Of a DNA stretch of 64,000 nt, positions 33,417-58,479 are shown piece after piece (position 1 is the stretch's first letter; each line of letters starts with the position of its first letter). This DNA is from Dehalococcoidia bacterium (GTDB taxonomy: Bacteria > Chloroflexota > Dehalococcoidia > Lucifugimonadales > JAGWBF01): NCBI GenBank assembly GCA_965247295.1, contig CBDFGQ010000004.1, positions 65,356 to 129,355 on the forward strand. The letters run 5' to 3'. Below the pieces are notes generated by a model. The model did not search any database and was not told where the DNA came from. It saw nothing but the letters and a program-made list of their open reading frames with translations. Position numbers and translations under genes: made by a program.

Positions 33417-33502
33417 TGGTGCCGAGGGAGGGATTCGAACCCACACACCCGTGAGGGTAGCGGATTTTAAGTCCGCCGCGTCTACCATTCCGCCACCTCG
33501 GC
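33417..33502 (-). tRNA. tRNA-Leu (anticodon UAA), class II with long variable arm, CCA encoded
   Basis: Minus strand GCCGAGGTGGCGGAATGGTAGACGCGGCGGACTTAAAATCCGCTACCCTCACGGGTGTGTGGGTTCGAATCCCTCCCTCGGCACCA. 7-bp acceptor stem, anticodon stem GCGGA/TCCGC with loop CTTAAAA, TTCGAAT T-loop. Confidence 0.9.
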
Positions 33503-34937: not shown

Positions 34938-36584
34938 TTAGCTTTCACAGACGATCCCATCATCGTCGGCGTCTCTCATGTATTGATACGCCGGATGCCC
35001 CCGGCGTACAGGTGCGATGCCATGGTTCCGCGCCTCGTCGCAGGTGATGCGCCCGTTGCCATTGTCGTCCCATAGCGCCAGCGCGTCCACGTCGGGACCG
35101 GGGGGTGGGATTGGCGTTGGGGTCACCGACTCCGTAGCGGAAACCACGACCATCTCCACAGACGAGCAGCCAGTCAGCACGAGGCCTAGAGCATCCGCTT
35201 CGGCTTGATCGACGGTGAGCTCATACTTGAGCCGGACCTGGACGATTCGATCTGCGAACCAGCACGTATTCATGTCAGGCAGCCACTCGGCCGCATCCTT
35301 ATCGCTCTTCTGGTGGCGGTTGACGCTCGGGTCAGCGAGCGTGAGGTTTAGCAGGTCAGCGGCGAACTCGCGCCGCGTTGCATCGTTAGCGGCGCACAAG
35401 CCGCTATCGTGGGCCTCAGAACGTGCGACGATGTGCTCAATGTCGGTGTCCTTCTGACTGGCAAACCAACGGCCTGTATAAGGCCCATAGATTCCGCCTA
35501 TATCTGCAACGATTTGGGCCTCAACAGACTGGGAGTAGGGATAATCATCTGGATCGTACGATGAGCAGCGGTCTTCTGGAGCAAGAACGAGACCACGCCA
35601 AGTTGTCAATGACGTAGAAGTTGGAGTGAGTGTAGGCGATGGAGTGCTGGTTGGCGTGGCTATATCATCTGGTGGATAGTAAAAGGCACACATACCATTC
35701 TCAAGTTCCTCGTGTGGGACGTTGCTATACAAGTCTGGAAACTGTTGCCGATTGGAACAGGGTTCCTCTTCGCGGGTATATCCTTGGGCGATGGCTTCAC
35801 TTATGGATATGGTTTCTGGCGTGGCCGTTGGGGTCGGCATGGCGGTTGGCTCAGGCGTGGCTGTGGGCTCAGGTGTAGTGAATTCCAAACTGCACGGATT
35901 CTCCTCGACTAGCACTTCCGGTGAAACGTAGACAACCCATTTGCTATCCTGCCACACCCATCCCGGCTCTTCGTCTGTTACGCTTTCGTCGTCATCAAGA
36001 TCGAACGACACTCCGTCCTTTTCCCAGTGGGAGTCAGTCCATCCATTGTCACCGTCTATCCTCACTCCATCTAAGACATAGGACGCACCTTCAGGTATAC
36101 CCCAGAATGACCATGCAAAGGTCAGGAGTACTGCGAAATCCTCTAATGAGCATTTCGCTTTATACTCGTCAGGATAGAAGGAACGTAACAACGCCCATTC
36201 GCGTTTGGCTAGTGCACCACCGGCGACGGTGCCGACTTGCGATAACAGTGCTGCCCTGTCGACCTCTGCGGTTGGCTCAGGCGTCGCCGTAGGCGTTGGT
36301 GTATTCGTAACCTCGTCCACTGTGGGTGTCGGCGTTGGAGTGCTGGGCATAGTTGCGTTCGTCGCCTCAGGTGTAGCCGTCGGCTCTGCGGTCGGACTAA
36401 ATGGTGTATTCGTAGGAAGCAAGGATGCGGGTGTCGTGGTGGGCTTAGGAGTCGCGGGAGCCCCTGTAGCTGACGGAGTGGACTCCACCGTTGGTTCTGC
36501 GGTAGCAACGAGTTCAGGCGTTTCTTCCCCGCAGGCCGCCGCCGCTAGCAGGAGGAGTAGGCTGATTGCTATGATGGTGCGCAT
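34938..36584 (-). CDS. Secreted (probable lipoprotein) DUF1524-type His-Me/HNH nuclease with C-terminal Excalibur Ca-binding domain
   Basis: Signal peptide MRTIIAISLLLLLAAAAC. Long Pro/Thr-rich linkers. DTDIEHIVARSEAHDSGL...LADPSVNRHKSDKD is DUF1524-like. The C-terminus DDNGNGRITCDEARNHGIAPVRRGHPAYQYMRDADDDGIVCE is Excalibur-like. The stop TAA abuts the integrase ATG. Confidence 0.7.
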   Translation of the reverse strand: MRTIIAISLLLLLAAAACGEETPELVATAEPTVESTPSATGAPATPKPTTTPASLLPTNTPFSPTAEPTATPEATNATMPSTPTPTPTVDEVTNTPTPTATPEPTAEVDRAALLSQVGTVAGGALAKREWALLRSFYPDEYKAKCSLEDFAVLLTFAWSFWGIPEGASYVLDGVRIDGDNGWTDSHWEKDGVSFDLDDDESVTDEEPGWVWQDSKWVVYVSPEVLVEENPCSLEFTTPEPTATPEPTAMPTPTATPETISISEAIAQGYTREEEPCSNRQQFPDLYSNVPHEELENGMCAFYYPPDDIATPTSTPSPTLTPTSTSLTTWRGLVLAPEDRCSSYDPDDYPYSQSVEAQIVADIGGIYGPYTGRWFASQKDTDIEHIVARSEAHDSGLCAANDATRREFAADLLNLTLADPSVNRHQKSDKDAAEWLPDMNTCWFADRIVQVRLKYELTVDQAEADALGLVLTGCSSVEMVVVSATESVTPTPIPPPGPDVDALALWDDNGNGRITCDEARNHGIAPVRRGHPAYQYMRDADDDGIVCES

Positions 36585-36673: not shown

Positions 36674-37072
36674 ATGCTCTCGGATGATCTCATCCAGGAA
36701 CAGGCCTATCTGGTGTCACGCGGGGTACGTCCGCTGGCTCTACTGGAATCCGTCAGTCTTGAACCTGCGGAGATGGTCAACACGTTTGTCCGCCTCAACC
36801 AAGTCGCAGTGGACCCTGCCATCCCCTTCGTGCTGCCTCGCAGGGATATGAACTGCGCGATGACAGGATTCGCCGCTGCTCCATGGGTGATTGAGCTTCT
36901 CCAGTGGTCCTACGACCATGCCCCTCTTCGACAGCACCACCGCATTATCGGACTGTTGTTGGGCTACTCCGTCAGCGCCATAGCCGAGCACGACTCCCGT
37001 GAGTTCGCGGGTCGGCCTAAGGAGCAATCCAGGTCCACTCAACAGCCCGCTTGCAATAGGAGCACGGAGTAA
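36674..37072 (+). CDS. Hypothetical protein (lysogeny-region cargo)
   Basis: 132-aa ORF with plausible composition. No recognisable motif. Confidence 0.45.
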   Translation: MLSDDLIQEQAYLVSRGVRPLALLESVSLEPAEMVNTFVRLNQVAVDPAIPFVLPRRDMNCAMTGFAAAPWVIELLQWSYDHAPLRQHHRIIGLLLGYSVSAIAEHDSREFAGRPKEQSRSTQQPACNRSTE

Positions 37073-40169: not shown

Positions 40170-40964
40170 ATGACAACCGAGTTAGCGAAAAGCCAAGCAA
40201 CGCTACTGGAGAAGGTCGTGATCCAGGGCGACCTGGAGAAACTATCGCCAGCCGAACGCCTGCATTACTACAGCAAGGTCTGTGAATCCTTGGGCCTGAA
40301 TCCCCTCACCCAACCCTTTGCCTACATCAAGCTATCCGGCAAGCTCCGACTCTATGCCACCAAGGACGCCACTGAGCAACTGGCCCAGATTCATGGAATA
40401 AGCATTGGGCTATCTGATGGACAGACGATAGACGGTATGTACGTGATAAAGGCCACAGCAGCCAAGGAAGGCCGGTCCGCCGACGCAACGGGCGCAGTCC
40501 CCATTGAGAACCTGAAGGGCGAGCCCAAAGCCAACGCCCTGATGAAGGCGGAGACGAAGGCGTCACGGCGGGCGGTGCTTCGTCTCGTGGGTCTGGGCTG
40601 GCTGGACGAGACCGAGGTTGACAGTGTGCCCGGGTCTACTCATGTGACCGTGGATCAAACCACCGGCGAGATAGCGGAGGCAAGGCCGGACTTTGAGCTT
40701 CGAGACTACCAAGGGGAGAGCGTGGAAGGTCTGCGGCAAGGGCTCCGTGAGGGGCATCTGCCGCCAGCACTCAACGGCGATGCCAAGGCTGGCAGCGTCG
40801 AGGCCCTCGCAGCCCATATGAAGACCCTGGGGTGGGAGTGGGAAACATTCGAGACGAAGGTCCTGGGGATGACCTGGGGTGAGTGGATGAAACTGGGAGG
40901 CGATCCTGGGACGGCATGGCGCCGGTTCCAGAACTGGCAAGAGGAGGAGAACGATGCTGACTAA
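40170..40964 (+). CDS. RecT/Red-beta-type single-strand annealing protein
   Basis: LSPAERLHYYSKVCESLGLNPLTQPFAYIKL...ALMKAETKASRRAVLRLVGLG. Confidence 0.8.
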   Translation: MTTELAKSQATLLEKVVIQGDLEKLSPAERLHYYSKVCESLGLNPLTQPFAYIKLSGKLRLYATKDATEQLAQIHGISIGLSDGQTIDGMYVIKATAAKEGRSADATGAVPIENLKGEPKANALMKAETKASRRAVLRLVGLGWLDETEVDSVPGSTHVTVDQTTGEIAEARPDFELRDYQGESVEGLRQGLREGHLPPALNGDAKAGSVEALAAHMKTLGWEWETFETKVLGMTWGEWMKLGGDPGTAWRRFQNWQEEENDAD

Positions 40965-53293: not shown

Positions 53294-53563
53294 ATGGTTA
53301 AACAGACTCGAATAATCTTCACCTTGGGCGGCGTGGTACAAATACGTTTCGTATGTCCCAAGTGCGACGGAGCAGTGACTCAAAAACTCGATGCCAGTGA
53401 GCGATTGCCTGATCAATGTCCTTCATGTAAACAGCCATGGTCCAAAGAGCCGGGGATTCGTAGCAGCGATCAGATCTTCTTAGAAGCATTGCGACATTAT
53501 CTGAAGCAAGATGTGTTTCACGTGCAACTGCAATTCGAATTGGATGGCGAGAAGACAGAGTGA
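53294..53563 (+). CDS. Small zinc-ribbon protein, paralogue A
   Basis: MVKQTRIIFTLGGVVQIRFVCPKCDGAVTQ...QCPSCKQPW. Paralogous to 61067-61363. Confidence 0.6.
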   Translation: MVKQTRIIFTLGGVVQIRFVCPKCDGAVTQKLDASERLPDQCPSCKQPWSKEPGIRSSDQIFLEALRHYLKQDVFHVQLQFELDGEKTE

Positions 53564-53567
53564 CATC

Positions 53568-55652
53568 ATGAACCGCTTCACCCGTGGCCTCAAGGCGTTT
53601 ACCCAAATGATCTTTGGCCGCACTGCCAGTGGTCGCTCCCCGCTGTTCCTGCCCCGCACAGCCATTGACTACGAGCGCGAGGTAGGCGACGGCACCAAGT
53701 CCGATATCGTCATGGCTGGCGTTCACTGGCTTATGGGGGCCTTCCCCGAAGCCCCGGTTATCCTGAATCGGCTAGGCACCGACGGTAGCCCAGAGCCCGT
53801 CCTCATGCACGACTTTCTTGCCCTCCTGAAGCGTCCCAACCTGTACTACAGCGGTGAGCAGCTCTGGATGGGCATTGAGATGAGCTACACCGTGAGCGGC
53901 AACGCTTACGCCATCATCGTGTCAAACAACGCTGGTCGGCCTGCTCAACTCTGGTGGGTTCCACATTGGATGATGGAACCGGAATGGGATAGGGAGGGAA
54001 ACGAGTTCCTTACGCATTACGTCTACTCTCCACCGGGCCATAGGCCGATACGCATCGAAGCCGAGGATGTGCTGCACTTCCGGTTCGGCTTCGACCCTAA
54101 CAATCCGCGTAAGGGGCTATCGCCTTTACGCACAGTCATGCGTGAACTATTTACCGATGCAGAGGCAGCCAACTGGACCGCTTCGTTCCTGCGCAATGGT
54201 GCCGTCCCGTCTATCATGGTCATGCCCAAAGAGAACGCCAACATCATCCAGTCCGATGATGACCTAAAGGCTACGAAGGCTGACCTATCAGCTAGCTTCA
54301 CAGGAGACCGTCGTGGCGAACCCATGGCCATTGGAGCTCCAGTTGATATTGCGCAGTTTGGCTATAACCCGCAGGAGATGGACTTAGCGTCCCTGAGAAG
54401 GATTCCTGAGACTCGTGCAGCCGCTGTCCTACGGCTTCCCCCAATCGTCATGGGTCTGCTATCTGGTCTCCAATTTGCGACGTACGCGAACTTCCGTGAA
54501 GCAGAACGTGTGGCCTACCGGGCCAATCTCATACCAACCTATCGCAACATGGCAGGCACGCTGCGCACTCAATTGCTTTCCAGGTTCGAGCAGAACATCG
54601 ATCTGTTCGAAGTACAGTTCGATACCTCACAGGTAGAGGCTTTGCAGGAGAATGCGGACGAACGGGCGGCCCGATGGCGTGGCCTGTGGGTCGATGGAGT
54701 CGCCGAGCTGGGCGAAGCCCGTGCAGAAGTGGGTCTTACTGTGGACCCAGCGATACATAGTATTCGGCGTGTGCCGCTTGCGGTTTTGGAGATTCCCGCG
54801 GGAGAGGCGGTTTCCTCCTTCCTGCCACCCCCGTCTGGCCCTGAGACCCGAAGTCGTAAGGCCGTGGGCATTAAGGCGACTGCCGCCCAGCGCAACGTCA
54901 TCCTCGCCCTCCAGCGGGACGCTCTCAGATTGGAAGAGGCCTTTACGAAAGACCTTGAGCCAGCCTTTGAAGAACTAGGGCGGTTGGCAGAGCGGGCCTA
55001 CGAGGAGGCCCAGGTGTTGGTGCGTGCTGGTGGCAATGGCCGTGAGGAGAAGCAAACACCGGAGGAGGAAAAGCTAGCCGAGCGCATCATACAGCGCATG
55101 GCGCTAAGCCAGTGGAGCCAGGACGCCTTGATTCCTGCCTTCGATGGACACTATTTACGCACGACTCAAATGACGGTTGGGTCTATCAACAACGTCCTAA
55201 GTCTCAGTGTCAACCTCCCCGATCCAGTGGCGCGGGAGATCGTGGCTGCTGGCGGGCGCCGTGCGGGGCTCCTGGACATTACAGGGGATACACGACGGGC
55301 CATTTTTCGCTCTCTGGCCGACGGTAGATCTGCAGGAGAAGGCCCCGCAGCTTTGGGCCGCCGCATCCGTAGCCAGGTGCCCGCAGGGCGGTTTACGAAT
55401 GCTGGGGCGAAGTATAGGGCAAACCTTATTGCGAGGACAGAGACGCTTCATGCCCAACGTGTCAGCTCGCTCGAAGCGTATAGGGCTTCGGATGTAGTTA
55501 CAGGCGTAGTAGCTTTCGACAATCAGACTGGATACGGTGACGAGGAGTGCGTGGCGCGGGATGGTAGGGTGTTCACCTTTGAAGAGGCTGAGGCTGAGAT
55601 GGCCTCTGAACATCCCCAGGGTACGCTTAACTTCGCACCAAATGTTGGTTAA
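53568..55652 (+). CDS. Portal protein (HK97 family) fused to a Mu F/SPP1 gp7-like head-morphogenesis domain
   Basis: The N-terminal 400 aa are portal-like (NLYYSGEQLWMGIEMSYTVSGNAY...). The C-terminus RANLIARTETLHAQRVSSLEAY...DEECVARDGRVF is MuF-like. Confidence 0.8.
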   Translation: MNRFTRGLKAFTQMIFGRTASGRSPLFLPRTAIDYEREVGDGTKSDIVMAGVHWLMGAFPEAPVILNRLGTDGSPEPVLMHDFLALLKRPNLYYSGEQLWMGIEMSYTVSGNAYAIIVSNNAGRPAQLWWVPHWMMEPEWDREGNEFLTHYVYSPPGHRPIRIEAEDVLHFRFGFDPNNPRKGLSPLRTVMRELFTDAEAANWTASFLRNGAVPSIMVMPKENANIIQSDDDLKATKADLSASFTGDRRGEPMAIGAPVDIAQFGYNPQEMDLASLRRIPETRAAAVLRLPPIVMGLLSGLQFATYANFREAERVAYRANLIPTYRNMAGTLRTQLLSRFEQNIDLFEVQFDTSQVEALQENADERAARWRGLWVDGVAELGEARAEVGLTVDPAIHSIRRVPLAVLEIPAGEAVSSFLPPPSGPETRSRKAVGIKATAAQRNVILALQRDALRLEEAFTKDLEPAFEELGRLAERAYEEAQVLVRAGGNGREEKQTPEEEKLAERIIQRMALSQWSQDALIPAFDGHYLRTTQMTVGSINNVLSLSVNLPDPVAREIVAAGGRRAGLLDITGDTRRAIFRSLADGRSAGEGPAALGRRIRSQVPAGRFTNAGAKYRANLIARTETLHAQRVSSLEAYRASDVVTGVVAFDNQTGYGDEECVARDGRVFTFEEAEAEMASEHPQGTLNFAPNVG

Positions 55653-55710: not shown

Positions 55711-55863
55711 ATGTCTGGCGCATTGACTACCACCGACCAACGCCCCCGCTGCTGGCGCTGTGGGCGGGTTCTCGCTGAGAAGCTTACCCGCCCCTGGGAA
55801 CTGAGTTGCTCCCGGTGCAAGGCGCCTAACGCGAGCCCGGTTTTGGCCCAGCAACCCCAGTAG
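55711..55863 (+). CDS. Possible Mu Com-like zinc-ribbon protein (50 aa)
   Basis: Own translation: MSGALTTTDQRPRCWRCGRVLAEKLTRPWELSCSRCKAPNASPVLAQQPQ. CxxC-15-CxxC with a CSRCK..N pattern as in Com. Overlaps a convergent ORF by 38 nt. Confidence 0.35.
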   Translation: MSGALTTTDQRPRCWRCGRVLAEKLTRPWELSCSRCKAPNASPVLAQQPQ

Positions 55864-56032
55864 GACCCCGCGTGCCAGGGACAAGCTTGATAGGTGATGG
55901 GACGATCCAGCCGCGCCCGACTCTCTGAGCCCCTTCGATGCGTCCCTGAGTGAGCAACTGCTGGATGCGTCTCTGGGAGACGCCTAGCTCCTTGGCGGCC
56001 TGTTGACTGGATAGGAATTGTTGTTGTACCAT
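55826..56032 (-). CDS. HTH_17/excisionase-like DNA-binding protein, reverse-oriented in the head module
   Basis: LSSQQAAKELGVSQRRIQQLLTQGRIEGAQRVGRGWIVP. Confidence 0.65.
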   Translation of the reverse strand: MVQQQFLSSQQAAKELGVSQRRIQQLLTQGRIEGAQRVGRGWIVPSPIKLVPGTRGPTGVAGPKPGSR

Positions 56033-56094
56033 GATCTTAGGTGACTAGCCTGGTAATGGGGCAGTTCGGCTTAGCTGGACTGCCCCATCTCATG

Positions 56095-56289
56095 TCATTC
56101 CTCCCTATCATCCTGAAGGCTTGCCCATATGGGTCGAGCTGCCTCTTGACCCAATAAGTATTCAGTCAAGGCTTTATCCGCTTCTGGAGTCATGATGCCC
56201 TTGGCTTCGGCTTCCATAGCAGCCTTTAGGACGCCTGCGATGAACTCCGCTGATGCTTGTAAGTTGCTATGATGATTACTGTTCATCAT
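56095..56289 (-). CDS. Hypothetical small acidic protein (64 aa) co-oriented with the phage tRNA
   Basis: ATGATG at 56289/56286 with GAGGG upstream, 19 nt downstream of the tRNA 3' end. The upstream part of track ORF 56095-56334 is antisense to the tRNA. Confidence 0.5.
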   Translation of the reverse strand: MMNSNHHSNLQASAEFIAGVLKAAMEAEAKGIMTPEADKALTEYLLGQEAARPIWASLQDDREE

Positions 56290-56307: not shown

Positions 56308-56380
56308 TGGAGCCAGGGGGATTCGAACCCCCATCTACCAAGGTGACTAACCTGGTGCTCTCCCTTTGAGCTATGGCCCC
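56308..56380 (-). tRNA. Phage tRNA on a tRNA-Ala scaffold (G3:U70, A73) with a non-Ala, probably 8-nt anticodon loop (UU-AGUC-AC); alternative reading is Thr(AGU)
   Basis: Minus strand GGGGCCATAGCTCAAAGGGAGAGCACCAGGTTAGTCACCTTGGTAGATGGGGGTTCGAATCCCCCTGGCTCCA. Cloverleaf drawn by hand. No CCA encoded. Confidence 0.75.
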
Positions 56381-56395
56381 CTGTTTCATGCTTCT

Positions 56396-56424
56396 ACTAT
56401 ACACTATTGCGTATTGTTTGTCAA
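56396..56424 (-). promoter_or_regulatory. Near-consensus sigma-70-type promoter for the tRNA cassette
   Basis: Minus strand TTGACA (56424-56419), 17 nt, TATAGT (56401-56396), 15 nt upstream of the tRNA 5' end. Confidence 0.6.
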
Positions 56425-56450: not shown

Positions 56451-56479
56451 TTGACAAACTGATTATGAAGTTCTACGAT
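56451..56479 (+). promoter_or_regulatory. Candidate rightward promoter facing the protease/capsid operon
   Basis: TTGACA (56451-56456), 17 nt, TACGAT (56474-56479). Confidence 0.4.
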
Positions 56480-56548
56480 ACTACATATAGTATTCGTGCG
56501 CCTTAGTGCGCCCGCATGTCGTGGACCAGTACGCTTAGGCGTCAGTGA

Positions 56549-56579
56549 CCCCGTGCAATACATAGCACGGGGTTTTTTT
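56549..56579 (+). terminator. Intrinsic terminator immediately upstream of the prohead protease gene
   Basis: CCCCGTGC-aatacata-GCACGGGG followed by TTTTTTT. Confidence 0.7.
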
Positions 56580-56581
56580 AT

Positions 56582-57223
56582 TTGCCTGACGACCTGCAAT
56601 ACAAGCGATTCACCCTTGAGATGAAGGGCGAGGGCGAGGCTGGCCTTGCCACCGCTCGCTTCGCCACCCTCAATGTTCGAGACCTCGACGGAGACGTCAC
56701 CCTCCCCGGAGCCTTCGGCAAGCAGACTGTTCTCCTCGCTGATTGGGCTCACGATAACCGCTCTCCATCTATTGGCCGCGCCGACATCCGTGAGGAAGGC
56801 GACCAAGCCCTAGGCGACATCCGCTTCAATCTGAAGATGATGCGGGGCAACGAAGCCTATCAGTCTATCGCAATGTCCCAAGAGCTCCAGGAGTGGAGCT
56901 ACGCCTACCAAATCCCTGAAGGCGGAGCCTACCAGGGCGACTTTGAGGGACAGCAGGTCCGTTTTCTCAAGGCAGTCAAGGTGACCCACCTATCCCCTGT
57001 CGAGCAAGGGGCGGGCATCAATACTGCAACCCTGGATATCAAAAGCGCTGTCTCTGCGGACGAATACGACAAACTGCTGAAGCGCATCGCTTTCTTGGAA
57101 GAGACGCAGCGCCAGGCTGAAGAAGTCAAGAAGGAACTGGCTCAGCAGCCCGACCCCTGGCTAGAATATGCCAACTACCGCACGGAGATGCTCCGGCGCA
57201 AAGCCTTTGTATTAGGAGAGTGA
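56582..57223 (+). CDS. HK97-family prohead protease
   Basis: KRFTLEMKGEGEAGLATARFATLNVRDLDGDVTLPGAFG matches the S78/U35 N-terminal pattern. Only a TTG start is available. Confidence 0.8.
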   Translation: MPDDLQYKRFTLEMKGEGEAGLATARFATLNVRDLDGDVTLPGAFGKQTVLLADWAHDNRSPSIGRADIREEGDQALGDIRFNLKMMRGNEAYQSIAMSQELQEWSYAYQIPEGGAYQGDFEGQQVRFLKAVKVTHLSPVEQGAGINTATLDIKSAVSADEYDKLLKRIAFLEETQRQAEEVKKELAQQPDPWLEYANYRTEMLRRKAFVLGE

Positions 57224-58479
57224 CAATGGAACTCAAGGAACTTCAGGACAAGTATCTTGGCCTGCTGAAGCAGGTGGAGGAGGTTCGTGCGCCCTACGAC
57301 GGTAAGGAAGCGCCTCCAGAAGACGTCAAAACGAAGATGAATGCCTTGCTAGACGAGGCCGACAAGCTCCAGGACGAGATCAAGAAGGCTCAGGACGGGG
57401 TCAAGCAAGCCAAACGCCTGGAGGAGCACACGAAGTGGGCCAATGAACCGCAGCGTAACTTCCCATTTCCCAAGGCCAATAGTGAGCAGAAGGATGGGGA
57501 GAAGGAGCAACTGGCGGTCAAGGGTTTCCGGGCCTACCTCAAGGGCGGCCAGATGGCGCTCGCCAACGATGCCATCCCCGGCATTCCTGAGTACAAGGTG
57601 CTCCAGGCTGACCAGGACACCGCTGGTGGCTATCTCACCGTGCCCATGCAGGTAGTCCAGACCCTACTCCGCGGCATCGATGACGCCGTGGTAATCCGCG
57701 GGCTCGCTAGCACCATCCAGGTAGGGCAGGGCGTGAGCCTTGGCGTGCCGACCCTCGATACCGACCAGGAGGACCCCACCTGGACGTCTGAGCTTCAGAC
57801 TGGAGTCCAGGACGATGTTGGGGCGTTTGGCCGACGGGAGCTGAACCCCTCGCCCCTGGCCAAGCGGGTCAGAATCTCAAACAAGCTCATCAATGCCCCC
57901 GGCTTGGACGCTGAGGCGATCTGGCTCCAGCGGATGCAGTACCGCTTTGACCGGGCTCAGGAGAACGCTTTCATGAACGGCCATGGGGCGAACCAGCCCC
58001 TGGGCCTCTTCACCGCCTCCAGCGACGGCATCAGTACCAGTAGGGATGTGAGCACCGGCAACACCACTACGGCCATCACTGCCGACGGCCTCATTAATGC
58101 CCGGTATCAGCTCAAGGGGGGCTACTGGGCTCGCGCTCGCTGGCTCTTCCATCGGGACGCGCTGAAGCAAATCAGAACAATCCAGGACTCAAACGGCTCC
58201 TACATCTGGCAGCCCAGCTTCCAAGCTGGACAGCCGGAGACCATCCTGGGCACGCCGTTCGTTATGAGCGAGTTTGTGCCGAACACGTTTACCACCGGTA
58301 ACTATGTAGGCATGATCGCCGACTTCAGCTACTACTGGATTGCCGACGCGCTGAGCATGCAGGTACAGCGGCTCATCGAGCTTTACGCCGAGTCGAACCA
58401 GGTGGGCTACATTGGCCGACTGGAGACTGATGGCATGCCCGTACTCGAAGAGGCATTTGTCCGAGTGACACTAACTTAG
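57220..58479 (+). CDS. HK97-family major capsid protein
   Basis: N-terminal coiled-coil delta-like region, then DTAGGYLTVPMQVVQ... and a typical HK97-fold length of 419 aa. Confidence 0.9.
   Translation: MTMELKELQDKYLGLLKQVEEVRAPYDGKEAPPEDVKTKMNALLDEADKLQDEIKKAQDGVKQAKRLEEHTKWANEPQRNFPFPKANSEQKDGEKEQLAVKGFRAYLKGGQMALANDAIPGIPEYKVLQADQDTAGGYLTVPMQVVQTLLRGIDDAVVIRGLASTIQVGQGVSLGVPTLDTDQEDPTWTSELQTGVQDDVGAFGRRELNPSPLAKRVRISNKLINAPGLDAEAIWLQRMQYRFDRAQENAFMNGHGANQPLGLFTASSDGISTSRDVSTGNTTTAITADGLINARYQLKGGYWARARWLFHRDALKQIRTIQDSNGSYIWQPSFQAGQPETILGTPFVMSEFVPNTFTTGNYVGMIADFSYYWIADALSMQVQRLIELYAESNQVGYIGRLETDGMPVLEEAFVRVTLT

Follow-up and report, generated by a model that had tools for sequence, protein, structure and literature searches.

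What might a virus do with a transfer RNA (tRNA) that is of the alanine type in its body, holds the core of an aspartate anticodon and, in one of two natural forms, presents that core in a loop of eight instead of seven nucleotides (nt)? The question is raised by a gene found in a prophage on a Dehalococcoidia contig (CBDFGQ010000004.1, positions 65,356 to 129,355; this whole stretch of 64,000 nt is called the window below, and all positions follow its numbering). The gene (56380..56308, minus strand), hereafter allele A, specifies an alanine-type body, the anticodon stem CCAGG/CUUGG, the 8-nt loop UUAGUCAC and no encoded CCA. The answer that we tentatively prefer, with somewhat less than even confidence, is that the product is an expressed, alanine-charged descendant of tRNA-Ala with an Asp-type anticodon core, which would misread Asp codons as Ala, with reading of the quadruplet GACU as a possible side activity of allele A, and which is carried by the prophage as a regulated cargo.

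The original prediction, made from the letters of the window alone, had placed a phage tRNA at 56308-56380, and these limits proved exact, with the gene on the minus strand and a score of 57.8 bits with the Rfam tRNA model RF00005, which is above the gathering score of 29. The 73-nt RNA is GGGGCCAUAGCUCAAAGGGAGAGCACCAGGUUAGUCACCUUGGUAGAUGGGGGUUCGAAUCCCCCUGGCUCCA. As read from the sequence, the acceptor stem GGGGCCA/UGGCUCC is made of the pairs G1-C72, G2-C71, G3-U70, G4-C69, C5-G68, C6-G67 and A7-U66, followed by A73, and U8, a short D loop with G18-G19 and the canonical T loop UUCGAAU are all intact. The anticodon arm had been drawn in two ways, with the 8-nt loop favoured over a 7-nt loop presenting the Thr anticodon AGU. 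The Rfam alignment places six letters at five model positions, which leads to the 5-bp stem CCAGG/CUUGG and the loop of 8 nt, and the minimum-energy fold calculated with RNAfold has the same loop. ARAGORN, on the other hand, forced a 7-nt loop and returned the call Thr(AGU) because it allows loops of 7 nt only. The RNAfold centroid structure, of equal energy, has G30/G31 paired to C39/C38, a bulged U40 and a hairpin loop of 5 nt; with two forms of the same energy, the loop of allele A is conformationally ambiguous in silico. A sigma-70-type promoter (TTGACA-17-TATAGT; 56424..56396, minus strand), which matches the consensus at 11 of 12 positions, ends 15 nt upstream of tRNA position 1. Both hexamers are kept in the four loci that were aligned (4/4) and likewise in L138 and L139, in agreement with the promoter of its own that had been claimed for the gene. 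The promoter is presumably active, and the tRNA gene presumably expressed.

The better part of the evidence on the loop comes from 13 related loci that were fetched by way of the portal gene, of the open reading frame (ORF) of 64 amino acids (aa) that follows the tRNA, and of a capsid cluster of 73 members. Allele A is identical over its 73 nt in the window and in three of these loci (L002, L009 and L132), the allele-A loci coming from at least three datasets, and a fifth, partial copy of allele-A type with the change A7G is present in L134 (1-75, minus strand), where it ends with the locus and stands in another context with another promoter. A second form of the gene, allele B, of 71 nt, was found in L010 (a 36-kb contig, named as circular), L131, L138 and L139, in the same slot and with the same partner genes as allele A. 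It has the stem UCGGG/CCCGA, the canonical 7-nt loop UUGUCAC (U33, anticodon GUC, A37, C38) and a 4-nt variable loop, scores 72 bits with Rfam (in L010), and is called Asp by ARAGORN. Four further relatives (L001, L135, L136 and L137) are without the tRNA. The tRNA body is invariant between the alleles, save for an A-to-G change in the T loop of L139 (UUCGAGU), and 8 positions differ in the anticodon arm and the variable loop. Three stem pairs differ in a compensatory manner (A/B: 27-43, C-G/U-A; 29-41, A-U/G-C; 30-40, G-U/G-C), which fixes the register and makes the 8-nt drawing the correct one for allele A. From the loop of the sister allele, UUGUCAC, it follows that the loop of allele A is GUC preceded by one additional A, which falls between U33 and G34. 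The four-base (A)GUC core of the original prediction is thereby backed by the anticodon of an orthologue. ARAGORN also reported 'tmRNA' (transfer-messenger RNA) over allele B plus upstream DNA, at 5728-5971 of L010 and 4086-4329 of L139; a tmRNA was rejected, as the Rfam scan of L010 gives a tRNA only, and these calls are probably artefacts set off by the alanine-type acceptor stem.

The comparison of the loci also bears on the explanation that the extra base is an assembly error or that the gene is a decaying pseudogene, which we consider hardly credible. Several of the loci do lie in degraded prophages rich in insertion sequences (IS), and the assemblies are apparently, by their contig names, of the long-read kind. 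However, among the four complete allele-A loci 61 of 264 columns of the upstream flank are variable and none of the 73 columns of the gene (1 of 71 among the four allele-B loci); an identical tRNA within diverged upstream DNA excludes an assembly error and favours purifying selection. Judged by its homologues, the gene is also free of the indel artefact against which the original prediction had advised a check, being the same in four loci of several assemblies and in part in a fifth. The stretch concerned, GTGACTAA, is no homopolymer, the promoter has been kept, the changes in the stem compensate each other, and the same extra A is found in a copy of the anticodon arm in the leader of a neighbouring gene, which is discussed below.

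As to the amino acid that the tRNA might carry, the alanine-type acceptor and D arms with G3:U70 and A73, which the original prediction had stressed, were borne out, and the T arm is of the alanine type as well. A scan of IMG/VR for the acceptor stem returned at least 120 stretches with an identical one, and all tRNAs among the matches listed have a UGC, GGC or CGC anticodon, as in ordinary tRNA-Ala. Metagenomic tRNA-Ala(CGC) and tRNA-Ala(UGC) (in L005 and L006) share with the gene both the T arm and the unusual D arm, UAGCUCAAAGGGAGAGC; the tRNA-Ala(UGC) belongs to an Ile-Ala pair typical of the rRNA spacer. In a comparison of tRNA bodies, with the anticodon arm left out, against the 681 tRNAs of the fetched loci (50 Thr and 22 Asp among them, the set being enriched in Ala by the way it was collected), the best scores out of a maximum of 50 were 41 for Ala, 33 for Val, 26 for Thr and 18 for Asp. 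Bacterial tRNA-Thr has C2:G71, and G73 is typical of tRNA-Asp; neither allele has one or the other (G2:C71 and A73 are found instead). The NGC anticodon of tRNA-Ala, for GCN codons, is absent too, the loop being UUAGUCAC in allele A and UUGUCAC in allele B. The tRNA is by prediction an alanine acceptor that is not an alanine decoder. Recognition by alanyl-tRNA synthetase (AlaRS) is decided by G3:U70 independently of the anticodon (PMC3874161) and, since the enzyme reads the G3:U70/A73 acceptor and ignores the anticodon, both alleles should accept alanine.

With these data the alternative drawing of the original prediction, an ordinary tRNA-Thr(AGU) with a loop of 7 nt, becomes very improbable. 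It agrees with the ARAGORN call and with the equal-energy fold in which U40 is bulged, where opening of the adjacent U-A pair would yield the 7-nt loop UUAGUCA. It would require, though, a stem with either a C-U mismatch or a bulge, and position 37 would be a pyrimidine; Rfam prefers the 8-nt loop, the body (with G2:C71 and G3:U70) scores 26 for Thr versus 41 for Ala, and allele B, with its GUC anticodon and its Asp call by ARAGORN, contradicts this reading.

Allele B also brings in tRNA-Asp. The combination of GUC and C38 in a 7-nt loop, a feature of tRNA-Asp, is present in this allele and is split between U33 and G34 by the extra A in allele A. It would be conceivable that the gene supplies a replacement tRNA-Asp, charged with aspartate through GUC and C38, which resists a host defence nuclease thanks to its foreign body and altered loop and sustains translation once the host tRNA-Asp has been destroyed. 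Of the elements that confer Asp identity in E. coli, allele B has G34, U35, C36, C38, G10 and G2:C71. Phage tRNAs that bypass anticodon nucleases have been described (PMC10264068), and the U-Q-U site at which colicin E5-type enzymes cut tRNA-Asp would be broken by the extra A of allele A (PMC1635277). Nevertheless, A73 takes the place of G73, the AlaRS identity set is complete, the body is distant from all 22 tRNA-Asp of the comparison (best score, 18/50), and a mutated true tRNA-Asp would be the simpler solution for a phage, all of which makes this explanation improbable.

The codons that the two alleles may read are a separate matter. By its loop, allele B is a canonical decoder of GAC/GAU. 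Three possible readings were considered for allele A: GUC may still read the triplets GAC/GAU with the extra base on its 5' side being tolerated, AGUC may read the quadruplet GACU, or the loop may no longer decode at all. The second of these had led the original prediction to propose insertion of Ala with a +1 shift at GACU, the 8-nt loop being taken as the hallmark of +1 suppressor tRNAs. Such a loop is not diagnostic, as yeast mitochondrial tRNAThr1 reads triplets with it (PMC3113583). Still, a dedicated +1 frameshift suppressor, in which AGUC reads GACU and inserts Ala to make or restore a specific phage or host protein, would be in keeping with the exact conservation of the 8-nt loop in four loci, with the decoding of quadruplets in E. 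coli by 8-nt-loop tRNAs with four-base anticodons, those on an Ala scaffold included (PMC9094753), and with the way in which the classical suf tRNAs act (PMC4238358, PMC7803779).

Targets of such a suppressor were sought among all GACU/ACUN sites of the window; to qualify, a site had to link 60 or more codons free of stops with a run of the same minimum length, also free of stops, in the +1 frame. Within the prophage part of the window, no more than two GACU sites passed, at 36992, where the ORF has no family match, and at 40959. The latter lies in an overlap, ATGCTGACTAA (40954-40964, plus strand), between two ORFs that are both 264 aa long; the first of them ends with GAC-TAA, and reading of GACU would fuse them, which speaks for a suppressor. 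However, the downstream ORF is a complete Cas4-like exonuclease, the upstream one is without known family, and the junction looks like an ordinary stop/start overlap in which GACU is coincidental. No convincing split gene requiring a +1 shift was found in the approximately 30 kb of prophage within the window, and the frameshift of the tail chaperone is −1. The prophage's own genes contain 36 in-frame GACU, and if quadruplets were read efficiently, proteins of the phage itself would be damaged. GAC is followed by T in 12% of cases in the prophage versus 17% in the host; GAU has the same trend, and this parallel deficit argues against any GACU-specific avoidance. There is, in short, no evidence of a programmed +1 target for the tRNA, and the claim of +1 suppression at GACU found no support. 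Furthermore, the 7-nt sister allele, in the same slot and with the same partners, shows that the module can do without the extra base, and the mirroring of the extra A in a leader that is not a tRNA points to a constraint other than codon size. A dedicated suppressor is, on balance, unlikely.

The copy in question is a 16-nt stretch in the same sense as the anticodon arm, ACCAGGcUAGUCACCU (56039..56054, minus strand). It is found 6 nt ahead of the AUG of the gene that closes the tRNA module and codes for a helix-turn-helix (HTH) protein, and it changes together with the tRNA allele. When up to 3 mismatches are allowed, the 16-mer is matched at two places only in the 64-kb window, the leader copy and the tRNA. 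With allele A, the tRNA arm ACCAGGUUAGUCACCU is accompanied by the leader ACCAGGCUAGUCACCU, then AAGAUC-AUG (56054..56030, minus strand); with allele B, the arm CAUCGGGUUGUCACCC is accompanied by CA(C/U)C(G/A)GGUUGUCACCC, then AAG(A/G)U(A/C)-AUG. Four of the five A/B differences in the 17-nt arm stretch recur in the leader: the one-base insertion (UAG versus UG) and the U/C after CACC do so in all loci, and two stem positions in some. The observed local-alignment score was reached by 51 of 2000 shuffles for A and by 4 of 2000 for B, and the parallel indel in tRNA and leader has a weight that is independent of this shuffle test. The HTH protein also exists with A-type and B-type cores, the substitutions lying inside the matched HTH domain, so that leader copy, tRNA allele and HTH core co-vary in all eight loci (8/8) with both tRNA and HTH gene, while the ends of the HTH protein, the 64-aa ORF and the flanks recombine freely. 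Within type B, leader positions 2 and 4 are polymorphic; the stem is not kept in the leader copies, and in L136 leader and HTH gene occur with no tRNA. Three causes of the copy are conceivable: a recognition site common to both places (an operator bound by the HTH protein as DNA, or a site in the RNA for one common factor), short-patch gene conversion, or linkage, which the parallel insertion makes insufficient on its own. The copy suggests that the anticodon arm is also regulatory. Two other interpretations were set aside. An extended homology between tRNA and leader is at odds with the local alignments, which are confined to the anticodon arm (16 nt in A and about 25 nt in B), and the order of the elements does not fit an integrative cassette with the arm copies as att-like direct repeats, since what comes after the second copy is the HTH gene instead of the 3' half of a tRNA.

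It is the leader copy that gives weight to the explanation that the gene does not decode at all, and that it yields a tRNA-shaped RNA, or serves as DNA, whose arm is the operator of the HTH protein, an RNA mimic of the thrS type to which the factor of the HTH leader also binds, or a decoy for an anticodon-loop nuclease or a modification enzyme, the body providing no more than stability, processing by RNase P or AlaRS binding. The position of the 16-nt copy 6 nt before the HTH start, with the tRNA as its sole other match in the window, the recurrence of four of the five arm differences together with the shuffle results (51/2000 and 4/2000), the A and B forms of the HTH core, and a body that stays invariant while 8 arm and variable-loop positions differ would all be accommodated, as would the presence, in the slot of relatives, of cargo of a defence type (HicAB and an Eco29kI-like enzyme); phage tRNAs that escape nucleases through altered anticodon loops have also been proposed (PMC10264068). 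On the other side, no feature of a decoding loop is missing from allele B, the compensatory changes in the stem would be needless for a DNA operator alone, and the leader copies, having lost the stem, would be poor structural mimics. L136, with leader and HTH gene but no tRNA or second site, and the polymorphism of leader positions 2 and 4 in type B fit the explanation badly too, and linkage over 100-300 nt could account for part of the allele association. We rate a non-decoding role as rather unlikely.

From what is established about the locus (the gene and its conservation, the two alleles, the alanine-type body, the promoter match and the duplicated arm), we infer the expression of the tRNA, its charging with alanine, the codons read and any benefit to the phage. 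In the sequence of events that we tentatively prefer, a descendant of tRNA-Ala with a rewritten anticodon arm heads the cargo module; AlaRS would charge it with alanine via G3:U70 and A73; its GUC core would deliver alanine to the Asp codons GAC/GAU, amounting to Asp-to-Ala misreading; with allele A, a minor or alternative +1 reading of GAC-U may take place. The anticodon arm, of which a co-varying copy stands at the start of the HTH gene, probably has a second role as a site that is recognised when the module is regulated.

Several considerations weigh against misreading. No benefit of it has been found, including in a comparison of the major capsid protein with 129 homologues, where no conserved Ala position was written as an Asp codon in the window phage. 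A tRNA that mistranslates should, when strongly expressed, be harmful to the host as well as to the phage. Some charging of allele B with aspartate is possible, as aspartyl-tRNA synthetase (AspRS) reads GUC and C38; synthetase competition of this kind is discussed in PMC10543346. With its extra A, allele A may be unable to decode at all. Finally, the co-varying leader copy implies that the constraint on the arm is not purely one of decoding, which lowers the confidence in any prediction based on the anticodon.

A variant that would turn the harm into a function is a self-controlled 'toxic tRNA' system, in which the HTH protein restrains a misreading or frameshifting Ala-tRNA by recognising the arm both in the tRNA gene and at its own start site. 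Recognition of the two arm copies by the HTH protein would explain their co-variation as specificity types A and B. If this were true, release of the tRNA, for example on superinfection or induction, would corrupt translation, the arm would be the first natural tRNA anticodon arm to double as a regulatory operator or mimic, and the phage would be the first virus with deliberate sense-codon mistranslation or quadruplet reading. The variant is, in our estimate, quite unlikely.

The module to which the tRNA belongs is a small minus-strand cargo ('moron') module of a Dehalococcoidia prophage. In order, it is made of the promoter, the tRNA, the 64-aa ORF, a stable hairpin and the HTH gene, and it sits between the portal gene (53511-55652) and that of the prohead protease (56582-57223), opposed in direction to the late genes. 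The 64-aa ORF (56095..56289, minus strand) comes directly after the tRNA, with a ribosome-binding-like sequence, GAGAGGGAA, in front of it; it has no match in Pfam, PHROG, NCBIfam or PADLOC and is dispensable, being missing from L132 and L139. Between it and the HTH leader lies the hairpin GGGGCAGU...ACUGCCCC (56058..56086, minus strand), which is not followed by a U-tract and is kept in all nine loci (9/9) with the HTH gene. The protein encoded by the last gene (55826..56032, minus strand; 68 aa) is a DNA-binding protein of the excisionase family HTH_17 (PF12728, 3.3e-07; 25 bits with TIGR01764, which is under the cut-off of 28.8 bits). A search for a T-box or other known RNA families around the module gave nothing near threshold. 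In relatives (L131, L135, L136, L137, L138 and L139) the same slot holds HicA/HicB, a 223-aa ORF with an Eco29kI-like restriction enzyme, FloA, and several transposases or IS elements; the varied content marks the portal-protease interval as a typical variable cargo slot, or hot spot. In L131 and L139 it is the allele-B tRNA that heads the cassette with the Eco29kI-like enzyme.

Some observations on the surroundings of the module are of independent interest. In the region 56451-56581 (plus strand), a sigma-70-like promoter (TTGACA-17-TACGAT) stands back-to-back with the tRNA promoter, and downstream of it are a structured RNA of about 100 nt and an intrinsic terminator (56547-56574) with a U-tract, just upstream of the prohead protease gene. 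This RNA is kept, with compensatory changes, in all related phages, whether they have the tRNA or not; it resembles a short terminated late-leader transcript, and antitermination would be needed. Directly after the portal gene, a 50-aa ORF (55711-55863, plus strand) with cysteine pairs, CxxC...CxxC, is zinc-ribbon-like and is conserved in L001. In L002 (7348-9075) the portal gene is broken by approximately 1.7 kb that are missing from the window.

The window has a G+C content of about 60%. The prophage starts at approximately 33.4 kb and runs to the window end, so that about 30 kb of it are inside the window and its last part beyond. It adjoins an intact tRNA-Leu(UAA) gene (33417-33502, 61.8 bits), after which come the integrase, replication genes, large terminase, portal, prohead protease, major capsid protein (57220-58479) and tail genes. 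Two Dehalococcoidia metagenome-assembled genomes contain the nearest genomic relatives of the portal gene. A case of tRNA-dependent lysogeny (PMC10865867) was considered and rejected, as the tRNA-Leu(UAA) next to the prophage is intact and the cargo tRNA is not a Leu tRNA. By the integrase, a 548-aa ORF (34938-36584, minus strand) combines the C-terminal domain of a GmrSD-type restriction endonuclease with an Excalibur calcium-binding domain; it has no PADLOC match and may be a prophage-borne defence cargo. The phage helicase (42694-45261, plus strand) contains an intein with Hint and LAGLIDADG domains, and in relatives inteins are found in the large terminase of L137 (1-137) and in the tape-measure protein of L134 (11190-11254).

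The searches of IMG/VR and of cultured phage genomes brought up no counterpart of the tRNA described here. IMG/VR contained no tRNA with the D arm of the window tRNA, no tRNA combining an alanine-type acceptor with a GTCAC loop, and no relative of the HTH protein; cultured phage genomes gave no match, and the scan of one metagenome with the window D arm returned ordinary tRNA-Ala and tRNA-Val only. Full-text literature searches found no description of such a phage tRNA. Natural tRNAs in which identity and anticodon disagree are rare, and those with 8-nt loops are rarer still; to our knowledge, no tRNA with an 8-nt loop and mismatched identity and anticodon is known as a conserved cargo of bacterial viruses. 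Should it be charged with alanine and read GAC/GAU or GACU, a prophage would be deliberately changing the reading of sense codons of its host, which would bear on why phages carry tRNAs, on how far cells tolerate mistranslation and on the natural use of quadruplet decoding. The two alleles, with the same body and loops of 7 and 8 nt, are a natural experiment in this respect. The arm copy before the HTH regulator may reveal a new coupling between a tRNA and a regulator, and for genetic-code engineering the tRNA could be of use as a scaffold that accepts Ala in quadruplet or missense decoding.

Among known systems, the suppressors sufD, sufA6/SufB2 and SufJ acquired an 8-nt anticodon loop by a single inserted base (PMC4238358, PMC7803779). 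The likeness is limited to loop size. These suppressors are laboratory mutants of cellular tRNAs with unchanged amino-acid identity, obtained by selection against a known frameshift mutation, whereas the window tRNA is a natural, conserved phage gene with a mismatch between identity and anticodon, a 7-nt sister allele and a target site that was not found. A closer parallel in logic is offered by mitochondria: yeast mitochondrial tRNAThr1(UAG) has a natural 8-nt loop, reads triplets and brings about codon reassignment, and Ashbya mitochondrial tRNAAla(UAG) has gained G3:U70 and inserts Ala at the codons of another amino acid (PMC3113583, PMC3874161). In the Ala form, as predicted here, identity comes from G3:U70 and meaning from the anticodon. 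However, these tRNAs are organellar and achieve full reassignment without a competing tRNA, the Ala form having a 7-nt loop; in the prophage, the gene is an optional cargo and the host tRNA-Asp presumably competes.

The principle that AlaRS is blind to the anticodon is also that of tRNA-Ala variants, engineered in yeast and natural in human cells, which mistranslate with Ala (PMC10543346, PMC12084884), and of the E. coli tRNA-Ala scaffold with four-base anticodons, which is active and toxic, one construct having stopped growth (PMC9094753). These are point variants or constructs, and none of them is a viral gene that is conserved, has a promoter of its own and is linked to a regulator. Natural bacterial tRNAs with disagreeing identity elements and anticodon are known from the Streptomyces tRNAProA/ProX family and from the allo-tRNAs. 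They differ from the window tRNA in having Pro or Ser identity, in the dedicated synthetase of ProX, and in not being phage-borne. The thrS operator is a mimic of an anticodon arm in an mRNA leader, where a folded stem-loop acts as a binding mimic for the synthetase that the gene encodes. An arm-like sequence immediately upstream of a start codon is common to both cases, but the copy in the window loses the stem and the gene that it precedes is that of an HTH protein. The phage tRNAs that evade nucleases (PMC10264068) share with the window tRNA that they are phage-encoded and that their loop departs from the host norm; they keep identity and anticodon in agreement and can thus replace the cleaved host tRNA, whereas the window tRNA should carry the wrong amino acid. 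What sets the latter apart from the suf, mitochondrial and tRNA-Ala-variant systems is that it is a conserved cargo of bacterial viruses, present in two alleles that differ in loop size and linked to a regulator.

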